The notes under the pieces are model-generated. The model saw only the letters and a program-made list of their open reading frames with translations. It was not told the DNA's origin and searched no databases. From positions 1-64,000 of the forward strand of contig JAHQWL010000085.1 in the NCBI GenBank assembly GCA_029856155.1: a DNA stretch of 64,000 nt, written 5' to 3'. The position numbers and the translations under genes were made by a program. The DNA is from Promethearchaeia archaeon (lineage in GTDB: Archaea > Asgardarchaeota > Lokiarchaeia > Sigyniarchaeales > SOKP01). This document shows positions 45,684 to 50,085 of the stretch, piece after piece; position 1 is the first letter of the stretch, and each line of letters begins with the position of its first letter.

Positions 45684-46181
45684 TTACATTTCTAATGGTA
45701 CACGCCATTCTACTCCACATTCCCCACAATGATATTTTTTTCCATACATACGTGGATAATCTGATATTAGATGAGTCTTATCGATAGTTTCTCTGATAAG
45801 CGTTTTATTGTGATTCCCACATTTGGGACATTCTCTTCTCGAATCACCTTGGAGAATTTGCCCTTTACCCATTTCAAGAGGAGCTACATCTTTAGAAAAA
45901 ATTGAATCTGAAACGATTATTTCTTTTTTTTGTTCAATGGGTTTAATTTCTTCTTGTTTAATTATATCTTCAACTAATATCACGGGCTCATTTGTTTCTG
46001 TTTCAATTATAGGTTTTAATATTTCTTTAATTGGTTCTTTCGGTACTGTATATGGGCGTTCTCTATTTTCTAATTCAGCAATTCTCTTTTTAAGAATTTC
46101 ATTCTCTTTCATTAATTCTTCAATGAGGTCTTTATATTCTTGGAGAGTAAAGTCTTTTTTTTCTGTCATTTCTTTGCTCAA
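45684..46181 (-). CDS. Coiled-coil protein with C-terminal Zn ribbon
   Basis: N-terminal heptads; CPKC...CGEC. Confidence 0.75.
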   Translation of the reverse strand: MSKEMTEKKDFTLQEYKDLIEELMKENEILKKRIAELENRERPYTVPKEPIKEILKPIIETETNEPVILVEDIIKQEEIKPIEQKKEIIVSDSIFSKDVAPLEMGKGQILQGDSRRECPKCGNHNKTLIRETIDKTHLISDYPRMYGKKYHCGECGVEWRVPLEM

Positions 46182-46344: not shown

Positions 46345-47181
46345 ATGCAACTATTTAATATTAGTGATGAGGGAGAATTAATCAAGATAGATAGGTTATC
46401 TTTTGAGGAAAATGATGTTTATCTTGTTGATGACGAGGAAAAAAACACTATTTATATTTGGGTAGGTTTAAAAGTACTTCAAGCAAAAAAAGACATAATA
46501 GCGGACATTGCTAGAAAGATTGATAAAGAACGCGGTGGATCAGCAAAAATCTTGATAATGAAACAAAAAAGAGAATATGGTTCCTTTTTAGCTATGATGC
46601 ATGATCTTGAAAAAGGGCTAATCCCGGGAAAAACTATTGAAAGGAGACCAGAATTTGTACTAAAAACACCTCCTGAAAGGATAAAATCAGTTAATCTTGA
46701 AGAACCTCCTGAAGAAAGAGAATTAAGCATTGAAACAAAATTAATCGAATGGTTTCAACAACTTAAGAATCATAGAAGCTATGAACCACAAGAAAAGCTA
46801 AAGGAAACCACAGAAACTGTTACATTCGTTAAGTTTGAACAAGCACCCATGGAAGTTAAAGCTACTGAAGAGTTAGAAAGAATAGTTGAAGAGAAAAAAG
46901 AAGAACCTGAAGAACCAGATCTTAAGACACAAATAAAGGAAGCAGCATATTATCTGTCTTTAGATGAATATACTTACGATCAACTATGCTGGATTTTAGC
47001 TGAAAAAATCCAGAAAGTAAACCTAGATATGCCCTCTATAGAAGATATTAGGAGAAAAGCGGAGGAAGTCTTCAATTCAAGCTGTACATACGATGAACTC
47101 TGTTGGTTAAATGCTGAAATGGATATCTTAACTAGAAGAAGCTTTCTTGAACAGAAAAAGAGAAAGATGTTTGATTATTAA
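46345..47181 (+). CDS. Single gelsolin-domain protein with duplicated C-terminal YDxLCW helical domain (Asgard 1DGelX-like)
   Basis: DVYLVD...IYIWVG...Q.RE...F; YDQLCWILAE and YDELCWLNAE. Confidence 0.8.
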   Translation: MQLFNISDEGELIKIDRLSFEENDVYLVDDEEKNTIYIWVGLKVLQAKKDIIADIARKIDKERGGSAKILIMKQKREYGSFLAMMHDLEKGLIPGKTIERRPEFVLKTPPERIKSVNLEEPPEERELSIETKLIEWFQQLKNHRSYEPQEKLKETTETVTFVKFEQAPMEVKATEELERIVEEKKEEPEEPDLKTQIKEAAYYLSLDEYTYDQLCWILAEKIQKVNLDMPSIEDIRRKAEEVFNSSCTYDELCWLNAEMDILTRRSFLEQKKRKMFDY

Positions 47182-47220: not shown

Positions 47221-47526
47221 CTATCCACAACAACTATTATTTTGTGGGTTTTTTGCTACTGCACGAGCATTCCATAAACATCCACAACCTTTTCGTTCTT
47301 GTAATATAATTGCCATTGTTGGACAATTTCTTTTACAAGCAGAACATTCTGTACAGCGTTCTGGTTCATACATCTCATACTTTCCTTCGTTATTAGGATT
47401 TGGTATTCCAAACGGGCATACTTCCCCACAAATTCCACACCCTGTGCACAAATCAGGATTTATCGAGATTTTTGGAATAACAATAGGTATCTTGATTGAA
47501 GCTGCTTTTATCGTTATCTTTATCAC
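47221..47526 (-). CDS. 2x[4Fe-4S] ferredoxin, HgcB-like
   Basis: CTGCGICGEVCP, CTECSACKRNCP, extra GCGC and terminal SCCG. Confidence 0.85.
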   Translation of the reverse strand: MIKITIKAASIKIPIVIPKISINPDLCTGCGICGEVCPFGIPNPNNEGKYEMYEPERCTECSACKRNCPTMAIILQERKGCGCLWNARAVAKNPQNNSCCG

Positions 47527-47574: not shown

Positions 47575-49248
47575 TTATTTTAAAATATTAAAAAAAATGA
47601 ACCCAATAATTTTAGTAACAAGACCAATTATCAATAAAATCATATTAATTTTACTGAAAATGGGATATTCATCTTGAATTTCTCTAGGGCTTGTTGCCAT
47701 AGTATATCCACTAAACGATATTGTCGAAAAGAAAGCTAACCAAAAGTAAAAAATACTACTCAGAAGAATGGATAACAGTGAATAATGAAAAAGCCAAGAA
47801 AATCCACCAAACAATAAAACATTAATAACTCCAAAAATAACTCCTTTATTGACAAATTTGCGCGTAAATTTTGTAATGGGAAAAAATATCGCGATAAGTG
47901 CATTTGCTATAATTATCCAAAGCCAAATTTCGCCCACAATCAATAATTGTGATATCCATACAGTATTAATGAAACTTAGTCCTATAAATAACAAAATTAA
48001 GGCAATACTAGGCCACAGAAATATCTTTCGAAGTAAAAATGTTGTATGTGTAATTTCTGCTCGAAAACGATGCGATATTGTAAATTTTGCTAATTTCATT
48101 TTATCTGGTTTTCGAGCGGGACGTTCTTCTAAGAATTTAGGTAAATATTTAGCCCATACAGGACCATATAAAACATTAAAGGGAAAGTCAGGCGCCTCAG
48201 CTTTTATCAGTGGTGTTGCAATTCCTCCTGCTGAGAGTTGAGGTACAATTATTGTTTTTTTATTAGTAATTTGTGCAATCCCTGTAGCTTTAACAGCTTC
48301 AATTAATTGTTTATTTCCAAAATCGTTTCCACGTGCTGCGCACCATACATTTATACCCCTAGAATCAACACATAATACCCAAGCATCTAATCCTTTTAGA
48401 GCACGCATCACCTTAATATATGTATAAATATAATTAGCTGTTACAATGATAGGCGAAGCTTCATTGGGATTACCAGATTGGTAAATACCTGGTTCAATTG
48501 GTATTTGATCTATTTGTCCCGTGAGTATACAACGATAAATACTCATTTGAGCCCCTAATCCTTTGTATTTTCTATTTCCGGGATGATAATACCCAGGTTT
48601 TATTAAATCCTCCTTAAATATTTTTTTTAGTTCAATGGCTTGAATAGAGCCATGCCTCCATTTCATAACTGCTGAAATTTCAAATCCTATAGGTTCCAAA
48701 TATTTAAAGAACCACTTTACTATAAATGTACTTTGTATTCTGAGTCTCCGTAATTTCTTTTTATAACGCCATCGTTTAAAATTAAACCAAAGCTTCCAGA
48801 AGCCCGACGGTACAAATTCTGCCGCTATAATCATTCGACCATTTGGTTTTAATGCTTTCCATGCATTTCTTAGAAAGATTTGCTGTTCGAAAGGTCTAAG
48901 TTCTGAAAGCATAAATGTGCTAATAATAATATCCATTGTGGCATCCTCAACTGGTAGATCATCTATAGAGCCTATCTGATATAACAACTTAAGATTTGAT
49001 TTAGAGGGGTAATTTTTCATTGCAGCAGTTATCATTCTATGGTTTTTATCTAATGCCAGCACATCATTTCCTTTTAAAGCCATTTCTGCTGCGAGAGTAC
49101 CTGTTCCGCAACCTACTTCTAGGATGTTCTCTTGTGTATTAATTCGCTCTAATATCCAATCCTTTACTTCTATATTTACTCCTTTAGTAAGAGCTGTAAA
49201 TTTTGACTCATATAAATCTGGTTCCAATTCCAACTTTCGCATATACAC
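47575..49248 (-). CDS. Fusion of class I SAM methyltransferase and HgcA-like corrinoid-binding plus transmembrane protein
   Basis: LEVGCGTG, STFMLSEL; EPGIY..GNP...SPIIVTANY, GINVWCAARG, PQL, YGPV; 4-5 C-terminal TMs. Confidence 0.88.
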   Translation of the reverse strand: MYMRKLELEPDLYESKFTALTKGVNIEVKDWILERINTQENILEVGCGTGTLAAEMALKGNDVLALDKNHRMITAAMKNYPSKSNLKLLYQIGSIDDLPVEDATMDIIISTFMLSELRPFEQQIFLRNAWKALKPNGRMIIAAEFVPSGFWKLWFNFKRWRYKKKLRRLRIQSTFIVKWFFKYLEPIGFEISAVMKWRHGSIQAIELKKIFKEDLIKPGYYHPGNRKYKGLGAQMSIYRCILTGQIDQIPIEPGIYQSGNPNEASPIIVTANYIYTYIKVMRALKGLDAWVLCVDSRGINVWCAARGNDFGNKQLIEAVKATGIAQITNKKTIIVPQLSAGGIATPLIKAEAPDFPFNVLYGPVWAKYLPKFLEERPARKPDKMKLAKFTISHRFRAEITHTTFLLRKIFLWPSIALILLFIGLSFINTVWISQLLIVGEIWLWIIIANALIAIFFPITKFTRKFVNKGVIFGVINVLLFGGFSWLFHYSLLSILLSSIFYFWLAFFSTISFSGYTMATSPREIQDEYPIFSKINMILLIIGLVTKIIGFIFFNILK

Positions 49249-49369
49249 TACAGCGATAATATTTACACCTTTTTATTACCCATTTTATTAAATTTAAACA
49301 AAAAAAGAATAAAAATTTTGATTTTATAATTTTTAAACTAGATTCAATACAAAAATCGAGATGTTCGCT

Positions 49370-49465
49370 TTAACAACATTCTTCTTTTGATTGAGCTTCT
49401 TTTTCACTTTTAGTCTCTTCAACACAACATCCTTCAGTACAACATTCTTCATTTTTTTCTATCAT
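49370..49465 (-). CDS. Unannotated 31-aa acidic Cys-pair peptide (MIEKNEECCTEGCCVEETKSEKEAQSKEECC)
   Basis: ATG to TAA with GTGGT SD-like site upstream; lies between the operator/TATA and the hgcA-like gene. Confidence 0.7.
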   Translation of the reverse strand: MIEKNEECCTEGCCVEETKSEKEAQSKEECC

Positions 49466-49505
49466 TTGTTTATACCACTTCATTAATTTATTAATTAGTT
49501 AATTG

Positions 49506-49525
49506 ATAGTTAGGATCCTAACTAT
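49506..49525. promoter_or_regulatory. Perfect 20-bp palindrome ATAGTTAGGATCCTAACTAT (putative MarR operator) abutting a minus-strand BRE/TATA (CGAAAC-TTTTATAT)
   Basis: Directly visible; related copies at 49547-49560 and 50086-50099. Confidence 0.8.
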
Positions 49526-49602
49526 ATAAAAGTTTCGTTTCGTATAATTAAGATCCTAACAAACGTTAAAAACATTCAAAATTCAAAGAGGATTTAGTAA
49601 TA

Positions 49603-50070
49603 TCATAAAGAAATAAGTGAATTCAGGAGTTTTTGGAGTAATTCTCCTAATTTTTTTATCTCTTCCTCATTAATTTCCGGACAACATCCATTTACCATTG
49701 ATTCTAATCGAGGTGTTTTGGTTTTTAAATCTTCTCCCTTTTTAGTAAGTTTAACAAGAAGGCTTCGTCTATCGCTAGGATGTGACTCACGAGAAACCAA
49801 TTCCTTCTTCTCCATAGTGTCTACTACTCCTGTAATTGTAGATCTAGAACAATTACATGTTTCTGCTAATTCTTTAAATTGTTGACCATCAGAACTCCAT
49901 AATTCTCTTAGAATTAGATGTTGAGTTGGTGTTAGTTCTAACATTTGAATATTATTTCGCTGTAATTTTTCATATTTTTTATTTAAGGTATTGATAAGTT
50001 CAAAAACTTGAACAATGTCTTCAGGTTGACAACAAATATTTGAAGATTTTTGAGAATTTTTATCATTCAT
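49603..50070 (-). CDS. MarR-family regulator with multiple Cys (CC, CxC, CC)
   Basis: LTPTQHLIL...ELA...SRSTITGVVD.ME...V.R....DRRSLLVKLT.KG. Confidence 0.92.
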   Translation of the reverse strand: MNDKNSQKSSNICCQPEDIVQVFELINTLNKKYEKLQRNNIQMLELTPTQHLILRELWSSDGQQFKELAETCNCSRSTITGVVDTMEKKELVSRESHPSDRRSLLVKLTKKGEDLKTKTPRLESMVNGCCPEINEEEIKKLGELLQKLLNSLISL

Positions 50071-50085
50071 AATTATCAAATCTTA

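Follow-up and report, generated by a model that had tools for sequence, protein, structure and literature searches.

HgcA and HgcB, the canonical pair for mercury methylation, were reportedly described by Parks in 2013, and a 'fused HgcAB' is said to figure in the work of Podar (2015), Gilmour (2018) and Lin (2023). In MetH, an activation domain fused to the corrinoid protein uses S-adenosylmethionine (SAM) and a low-potential electron donor to methylate the protein-bound cobalamin. Closest to the gene considered here are two NCBIfam families, the 'corrinoid protein-associated methyltransferase' CpaM (NF043040) and the HgcAB-like protein (NF043039); since NCBIfam names both, their partnership is already catalogued. 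Our literature searches found no paper that mentions CpaM by either name and no experimental work on it, and a methyltransferase-HgcA fusion was mentioned neither in the search results nor in the passages retrieved from HgcA papers by term queries. We analysed a 64,000-nucleotide stretch of contig JAHQWL010000085.1 (assembly GCA_029856155.1, positions 1 to 64,000 of the forward strand), referred to below as the window, from a Promethearchaeia archaeon, a Loki-type Asgard assembly of 4.1 Mb that is 97% complete. One gene of the window encodes a CpaM-like methyltransferase fused to an HgcA-like corrinoid protein and is followed by a gene for an HgcB-like ferredoxin. We favour, with a probability of about 0.55, the reading that this fusion is a self-loading corrinoid methyltransferase of a CpaM/HgcA-like/HgcB-like system, for which a metalloid is the leading acceptor candidate.

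The window system is made of the same three modules as the CpaM and HgcAB-like pair, and shares with it a cap helix free of Lys, a position on the same side of the HgcA tree and the N-terminal YMxxLE...Y motif of the methyltransferase. It differs in that the fusion joins the methyltransferase to the corrinoid protein and leaves the ferredoxin as a gene of its own, that the cap helix reads AARG rather than AATG, AAAG or GACG, and that both halves fall below the cut-offs of the two families (133 against 180 bits and 172 against 285). The window layout thus combines a methyltransferase-corrinoid fusion, a free ferredoxin, AARG and scores below all three curated cut-offs. With canonical HgcA and HgcB (NF040863 and NF040864) the system has in common a domain homologous to the CFeSP (corrinoid iron-sulfur protein) large subunit, the strictly conserved Cys of the cap helix, the membrane domain with its five helices and a downstream Cys-tailed ferredoxin, and both types occur with MarR/ArsR-type regulators and arsenic-gene neighbours (PMC7438021; bioRxiv 10.1101/2022.10.17.512643). 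Canonical HgcA, however, has no methyltransferase domain or neighbour, carries GK where RG stands here, forms a separate clade and, in the purified complex, uses SAM directly (PMC11588087). The CFeSP (CdhE/AcsC) of the Wood-Ljungdahl pathway has a homologous corrinoid fold, the cobalt of which is loaded by a separate methyltransferase, MeTr, but there the donor is methyl-tetrahydrofolate or methyl-tetrahydromethanopterin and the enzyme a TIM barrel, whereas here it would be SAM and a Rossmann fold. CFeSP also has neither Cys ligand nor membrane domain, unlike the window fusion, and the source genome encodes its own CdhE elsewhere. The activation domain of MetH differs from the fused domain in its unrelated SAM-binding fold and serves repair only, not turnover. 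ArsM, too, is a SAM methyltransferase of class I and occurs in ars operons, but it holds As(III) by conserved cysteines and needs no corrinoid, whereas the window domain has a single Cys.

The fusion gene is one unbroken frame of 557 amino acids with a GTG start and an ATG two codons further in, as seen in the open reading frame (ORF) list and its translation (Table 1). It joins a class I methyltransferase of about 210 residues to an HgcA-like sequence, an arrangement that the sequence-only reading of this locus had picked out and that the Pfam and NCBIfam domain matches bear out. Public records name the protein only as 'methyltransferase domain-containing protein', and no further HgcA-like gene was found in the source genome, only a CdhE. 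An AlphaFold2 (AF2) model of the single chain, built on an alignment of 51 fusions, has a mean predicted local distance difference test score (pLDDT) of 91.4 and a predicted template modelling score of 0.87, and folds into a Rossmann-type domain, an alpha/beta corrinoid domain and five long C-terminal helices. The top Foldseek match is the computed HgcAB model 9a0b_A (Cooper 2020), with generic small-molecule methyltransferases next. This 2020 model was the only HgcA-type entry returned by Foldseek from the PDB, and a PDB sequence search found no solved HgcA structure. A predicted complex of the methyltransferase domain with the HgcA-like part and SAM gave a median score of 0.22 against a mark of 0.32, and is used here neither for nor against.

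The fusion is real, old and widely conserved. Both halves are present in all 120 closest database homologues, which are 511-578 amino acids long, 62-100% identical and drawn from Asgard metagenome-assembled genomes (MAGs) of many studies. Among 301 sampled Asgard genomes 139 hold a match, many of them full-length and reaching down to about 30% identity, and other Asgard families contribute full-length matches at 29-37%. A search of 1.8 billion cluster representatives returned some 30 distinct 50%-identity clusters with the methyltransferase-HgcA architecture, and the named carriers include Heimdall/Hodarchaeales, Anaerolineae and Candidatus Abyssubacteria. An artefact of assembly or gene calling, or a gene in decay, is already refuted by these conservation data: the close homologues come from independent assemblies, the frame is intact, both halves keep invariant motifs and the AF2 model is of high confidence, which leaves such an explanation a negligible chance.

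Within the methyltransferase domain (residues 1-208), Pfam Methyltransf_25 matches with an E-value of 1e-16 and the predicted SAM-binding motif LEVGCGTG lies at residues 43-50. Among the NCBIfam families CpaM is far ahead (E 1e-38, 132.9 bits, 213 of the 216 profile positions; the second-best family reaches about 51 bits), so that the resemblance of the N-terminus to CpaM, pointed out in the sequence-only reading, holds. The score lies below the CpaM cut-off of 180 bits; the fused CpaM domains of Anaerolineae and Abyssubacteria reach 277 and 231 bits. The 51 fusions show no variation at M3, L6, E7, the glycines of G46xG48xG50, D67, E116 and G137, and Y13 is kept in at least 90% of them; the YMxxLE...Y motif that marks the N-terminus in this family stands also on standalone CpaM. 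The only Cys of the domain, C47, sits inside the SAM motif. There is no ArsM-type Cys triad, and the ArsM model NF008823 gives 45 bits where its cut-off is 263. With a single Cys the domain cannot bind As(III) in the manner of ArsM, which fits cobalt as the acceptor.

The families that follow CpaM in score are UbiE/MenG-type quinone C-methyltransferases, and ArsM is also a weak sequence neighbour of CpaM. The former would suit an alternative in which the domain methylates the final substrate directly, be it a membrane quinone-like or lipid molecule or a metalloid, while the corrinoid protein and ferredoxin carry out some other chemistry, such as reductive dehalogenation or demethylation. A phospholipid N-methyltransferase among the otherwise generic small-molecule methyltransferases that are the structural neighbours would also be in keeping with this, as would halomethane dehalogenation by mercury methylators, reported in a 2026 preprint (10.64898/2026.04.26.720869). 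We regard direct methylation as quite improbable: the obligate coupling or fusion of CpaM to a corrinoid protein across many phyla is simplest if the corrinoid is the substrate, the As(III)-binding Cys residues are absent from the domain, and genes of quinone or lipid pathways are not conserved near the loci inspected.

Residues from about 235 to 557 form the HgcA-type region, recognized by Pfam CdhD (PF03599, E 9e-13). Its best corrinoid-family match is HgcAB_like NF043039 (E 2e-50, 172.3 bits, cut-off 285), and HgcA NF040863 gives E 6e-49 and 167.0 bits (cut-off 275). The CFeSP chains 9fzy_F and 2h9a_A of the PDB match the corrinoid domain at an E-value of about 1e-8. In the AF2 model DSSP assigns the membrane helices to residues 391-425, 429-459, 465-488, 491-515 and 521-556, and the alignment to the HgcA profile runs to position 321 of 325. 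Two features of HgcA, a CFeSP-like domain with a cap-helix Cys and a five-helix C-terminal membrane domain, are both present. Of the features of the HgcAB-like family, the CpaM coupling and the Lys-free cap helix are found, the first as a fused CpaM-like domain and the second as AARG; the C-terminal ferredoxin is not, as the protein stops after the membrane domain.

The codons at 48351-48328 (AAT GTA TGG TGC GCA GCA CGT GGA) read N300-V-W-C303-A-A-R-G307, and the presumed cobalt-ligating Cys is thus kept in a variant cap helix exactly where it had been placed. N300, V301, W302, C303 and A305 are invariant across the 51 fusions, G307 is conserved in at least 90% and R306 in 41 of them, and the 120 closest homologues all have NVWCAARG. 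The sequence-only reading took RG to be a replacement of GK that might alter activity or substrate. The RG is there, but it is not a local change: Lys occurs in none of the methyltransferase-linked forms inspected, and RG for GK is, as far as the aligned proteins go, a property of the whole clade.

A maximum-likelihood tree of the HgcA-type region cut from 119 proteins places all canonical proteins with a ...GK cap helix in one clade (Shimodaira-Hasegawa-like approximate likelihood ratio test support 99, 75 rows). Outside it lie the methyltransferase-HgcA fusions, the methyltransferase-HgcA-ferredoxin triple fusions and the HgcA-ferredoxin fusions, none of them with Lys. The window protein falls in an 'AARG' clade that covers three Asgard families, and on this evidence the gene belongs to a putatively non-mercury sister branch of the HgcA family. 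The earlier description of the partner as HgcA-like therefore stands in so far as its domains are of HgcA type, but the protein is of a non-canonical sister branch, scores below the cut-offs and fails the cap-helix definition. In the GK clade none of the 75 rows has a methyltransferase domain, and at the two canonical hgcA loci inspected no methyltransferase adjoins the gene, in agreement with the statement of the sequence-only reading that canonical HgcA has no such domain. The long GK-type protein P0265 was considered as a counter-example and set aside, its N-terminal 260 residues having neither a Pfam family nor a SAM-binding motif. In the mercury literature fused HgcAB counts as a non-methylating paralogue and Asgard sequences are placed in its subtree (PMC10083202); Lin 2023 likewise has Asgard sequences in the fused-HgcAB subtree, from an alignment trimmed of its first 327 columns.

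Rooting the tree with 15 Asgard CdhE corrinoid domains left the base of the HgcA family without resolution, and in an approximately unbiased (AU) test a tree with all methyltransferase-linked forms as one clade was not rejected (p 0.76). On these results we dropped the idea of an ancestral CpaM linkage; gain of CpaM in the sister branch and its loss on the stem of canonical HgcA agree with them equally well. Eight of the 15 Asgard CdhE proteins (the gamma subunit of acetyl-CoA synthase; L119, L122, L125, L126, L127, L129, L131 and L132) are about 600 amino acids long with two tandem corrinoid-binding domains, and the remainder, that of the source genome included, have one corrinoid-domain profile match each. 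A 417-residue GK-type protein inside the canonical clade, P0267, carries a C-terminal CxxCxxCxxxC motif; this may be HgcA truly fused to HgcB, and so something other than the 'HgcAB-like' family.

These placements bear on whether the fusion could be a true mercury methylase, a working HgcA into which a SAM-binding domain has been built. The Cys of the cap helix, the five membrane helices and the adjoining HgcB-like ferredoxin with its terminal CC are all as such an enzyme would have them, HgcA is among the best family matches, and SAM is the donor for HgcAB (PMC11588087). Against this, NVWCAARG does not match the high-stringency HgcA motif N[VI]WC[AS][AGS]GK (PMC10087281), the protein lies outside the GK clade and its 167 bits fall short of the HgcA cut-off of 275. 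Pyrococcus furiosus and Methanococcoides methylutens, which have non-GK fused forms and are the sole organisms tested from that side, neither of the RG clade, make no methylmercury (PMC5893877, PMC10087281), and a CpaM and HgcAB-like pair is found in a Methanococcoides MAG. We consider a mercury methylase very unlikely here, and mercury itself, judged from these motifs and placements, an unlikely acceptor.

The link between CpaM and the corrinoid protein extends well beyond the window. A scan of GTDB species genomes yielded 80 HgcAB-like loci, spread over many phyla of Bacteria and Archaea, and in about 75 of them a CpaM-type gene lies immediately upstream, mostly with a 4-bp overlap; the exceptions are mostly contig ends. 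This genomic coupling of CpaM to the HgcA-like protein is obligate, and the cap-helix Lys is absent from all 80 loci, the commonest motif being NVWCAATG. Standalone CpaM proteins score 182-292 bits (cut-off 180) and their HgcAB-like partners 361-474 (cut-off 285). In Asgard genomes with an HgcA-ferredoxin fusion, a 220-amino-acid gene starting MSYVYMKALE is found directly upstream, and triple fusions of CpaM, HgcA and HgcB are 580-655 amino acids long, one of them passing both the CpaM and the HgcAB-like cut-offs. The modules hence occur as [CpaM][HgcA-HgcB], as [CpaM-HgcA-HgcB] and as [CpaM-HgcA][HgcB], the last being the layout of the window and found in Asgard, Anaerolineae and Abyssubacteria. 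These three arrangements of the same modules are strong Rosetta-stone evidence for joint action of CpaM and the corrinoid protein, and the Rosetta-stone logic first applied to the window fusion alone is reinforced by the triple fusions and the upstream position of CpaM. The partners always present in the sister branch are the SAM methyltransferase and the ferredoxin only.

Both systems occur in some genomes of the same genus or family (L012 and L031 in G276, L029 in G204, L030/L136 in G104), the second with the cap helix NVWCGACG. Because the same genomes hold both, the fusion system and the standalone CpaM with HgcAB-like are not redundant copies. The stops (TGA, TAA) inside matches to this second paralogue mark where the standalone CpaM gene gives way to the HgcAB-like gene, and are not codons for selenocysteine.

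In the preferred reading, in which the fusion loads its own corrinoid, the HgcB-like ferredoxin would reduce the cobamide to Co(I), and the fused CpaM-type domain would bind SAM and methylate Co(I) to CH3-Co(III), with Cys303 of the cap helix as the 'Cys-on' ligand. From there the methyl would pass to a thiol-bound soft metal or metalloid near the five-helix membrane domain, perhaps at the GCGC/CC tail of the ferredoxin. That cobamide is bound, which way the methyl flows and what accepts it are inferred. The chemistry has a counterpart in purified canonical HgcAB, where SAM is the demonstrated donor, as the sequence-only reading had stated, acting via methylcob(III)alamin with Cys ligation while the ferredoxin supplies electrons (PMC11588087).

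The main mechanistic rival confines SAM to repair: SAM and an electron from the ferredoxin would re-methylate oxidized Co(II), as in the activation domain of MetH, and another donor would serve in turnover. The sequence-only reading had already named reactivation as an option. That a dedicated low-potential ferredoxin is always present agrees with this, and MetH is established to use SAM in exactly this way. At one Candidatus Abyssubacteria locus, moreover, a gene of the uroporphyrinogen decarboxylase (URO-D) family, with the fold of the MtaA/MtbA methylcobamide methyltransferases, comes right after the fusion and ferredoxin on the opposite strand (L134:6869-7963, reverse). However, in the loci inspected no other conserved methyl-donor enzyme (of MeTr, MtrH or MtaA type, or of any methyl-folate or methyl-pterin type) was found beside the fusions or the CpaM and HgcAB-like pairs. 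Reduction and re-methylation would also be needed in every cycle, since Co(III) or Co(II) is what remains once the methyl has left as a carbanion or radical (PMC11588087). We hold a repair-only role to be unlikely.

With regard to the acceptor of a self-loading enzyme, the relatives of the window gene offer a lead. In 17 of the roughly 36 window-family genomes in which both genes were located, the gene immediately upstream of the fusion, in the same orientation, belongs to the ACR3 family of arsenite exporters, and these ACR3-linked orthologues are 61-65% identical to the window protein. In the examples inspected the operon order is ArsR (76.9 bits, cut-off 55), ACR3 (283.4 bits, cut-off 282.8), fusion, ferredoxin, two small conserved proteins and an ArsC-like protein, and ArsR-type regulators precede the fusion in two further lineages. 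The source genome has an ars-type operon of its own on another contig (57000-68000), with ArsR, ACR3, a 98-residue protein containing ...DIYVPLDACACEW... and a 122-residue protein; no NCBIfam family matched either of these small proteins. In relatives the 98-residue protein is separated from ACR3 by the fusion and ferredoxin, and the source operon has the same flanking genes without that pair. Gene order suggests that in the window lineage the pair has moved to the MarR locus, or has been replaced there. ArsM was not found in the 97%-complete source genome. Canonical hgcAB of P. mercurii ND132 is controlled by an arsenic-responsive ArsR (bioRxiv 10.1101/2022.10.17.512643), and a precedent for methylcobalamin-dependent arsenic methylation is a side reaction of MtaA, as cited in PMC13262295. 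The specific proposal that the fused enzyme is a corrinoid-dependent, ArsM-independent methylase of As/Sb-type metalloids, its class I domain being the SAM-to-cobalt loader, is put forward tentatively, and we consider it unlikely.

Several points weigh against a self-loading enzyme with a metalloid acceptor. Since the protein falls below the cut-offs of CpaM, HgcAB-like and HgcA alike (133/180, 172/285 and 167/275), it represents a divergent subfamily. A separate loader is not chemically required, because canonical HgcAB uses SAM without a class I domain (PMC11588087). The window locus itself lies outside an ars operon, with the MarR regulator and the Cys-pair peptide at its head. Among the 80 CpaM and HgcAB-like loci, ACR3 lies within 4 kb in one and an ArsR-like gene in four, and ars genes were not seen at the one Heimdall and the one Abyssubacteria locus inspected; the arsenic link is confined to one lineage. 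In one relative a true ArsM (347 bits) adjoins the fusion in the ars operon, so that simple arsenite methylation would there be redundant. Because ACR3 loci are few, some loci are free of ars genes and ArsM makes for redundancy, arsenite or a similar metalloid is graded as a leading candidate only. An arsenic link for the whole CpaM/HgcAB-like superfamily was considered and rejected, with ACR3 nearby at only 1 of the 80 loci.

Table 1. Features of the fusion locus in the window (positions in the 64,000-nucleotide stretch; aa, amino acids)
Feature	Position	Strand	Basis
Whole fusion gene: CpaM-like methyltransferase, HgcA-like corrinoid domain and 5-helix membrane domain, 557 aa	47575..49248	-	ORF, translation, domain matches, AF2, homologues
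Class I SAM methyltransferase domain, divergent CpaM, aa 1-208	48625..49248	-	NF043040, 132.9 bits (cut-off 180), profile 3-215/216
Linker, aa 209-234, conserved PGYY(R/H)P motif	48547..48624	-	Alignment consensus; pLDDT dip to ~80
Corrinoid-binding domain, aa 235-390, homologous to CFeSP large subunit	48079..48546	-	PF03599 at aa 235-340; PDB and Foldseek matches
Cap helix NVWCAARG with presumed cobalt-ligating Cys303	48328..48351	-	DNA reading
Membrane domain, five long helices, aa 391-556	47578..48078	-	DSSP on AF2 model; HgcA profile alignment
HgcB-like 2x[4Fe-4S] ferredoxin, 101 aa, GCGC and C-terminal SCCG	47221..47526	-	NF040864 best match, 53.9 bits (cut-off 99)
Small Cys-pair peptide ORF, 31-37 aa, CCTEGCC...ECC (MKWYKQMIEKNEECCTEGCCVEE...KEECC), three Cys pairs	49370..49483	-	Predicted; between regulator and fusion
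Cys-rich MarR-family regulator heading the cluster	49603..50079	-	PF01047 MarR, E 6e-19

The ferredoxin is a separate ORF 48 nucleotides downstream of the fusion, with two CxxCxxCxxxCP motifs. It follows the fusion in every locus for which the downstream DNA is covered, except L022, and its GCGC(L/I/V)WN motif is common to several Asgard families. The Cys-rich MarR regulator carries the motifs ICCQ, TCNC and GCCP, and its nearest NCBIfam model is of the thiol-sensing OhrR type (54 bits, below the cut-off). In the window's subclade (69-100% identity) the regulator is conserved upstream of the fusion, and it and the Cys-pair peptide come first in the cluster. A CC...CC peptide of 25-38 residues occupies the same place in 9 of 11 loci of the same genus, and was not found at the ArsR/ACR3-type loci L135-L137. 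In L138, ArsM and small proteins encoded by the ars-type operon also have N-termini rich in Cys pairs. At 49500-49565, between genes, upstream of the peptide and fusion and next to the MarR gene, lie palindromes of the GTTAGGATCCTAAC type. On the other side the cluster is flanked by a gelsolin-domain protein (46345-47181, forward; Pfam Gelsolin, E 7e-6), which has the same position in a 79%-identity relative, and by a Zn-ribbon/coiled-coil protein (45684-46181, reverse). Such a flank is in keeping with an Asgard origin, and the two genes seem to have no part in the methyltransferase system.

What HgcAB does in nature is a long-standing question, mercury methylation having the look of a side activity, and it was not until 2024, with the demonstration of SAM as donor, that the view of its methyl source changed. 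The finding that a whole sister branch of HgcA is linked, through either fusion or overlapping genes, to a SAM methyltransferase dedicated to it gives independent genomic support for SAM-to-cobalamin chemistry, and the Asgard fusion offers, in a single polypeptide, a handle on the methyl-loading step. The placement in ars operons in close relatives suggests concrete substrates. For environmental surveys, the abundant 'hgcA-like' genes of this branch in sediments should not be counted as mercury methylators. If the proposal of a metalloid methylase with its own SAM-to-cobalt loader is true, the fact that a CpaM partner and the cap-helix Lys are perfectly anticorrelated would mean that the Lys of the GK motif in canonical HgcA, or its surroundings, binds SAM directly, and the native function of the whole HgcA family would become testable.

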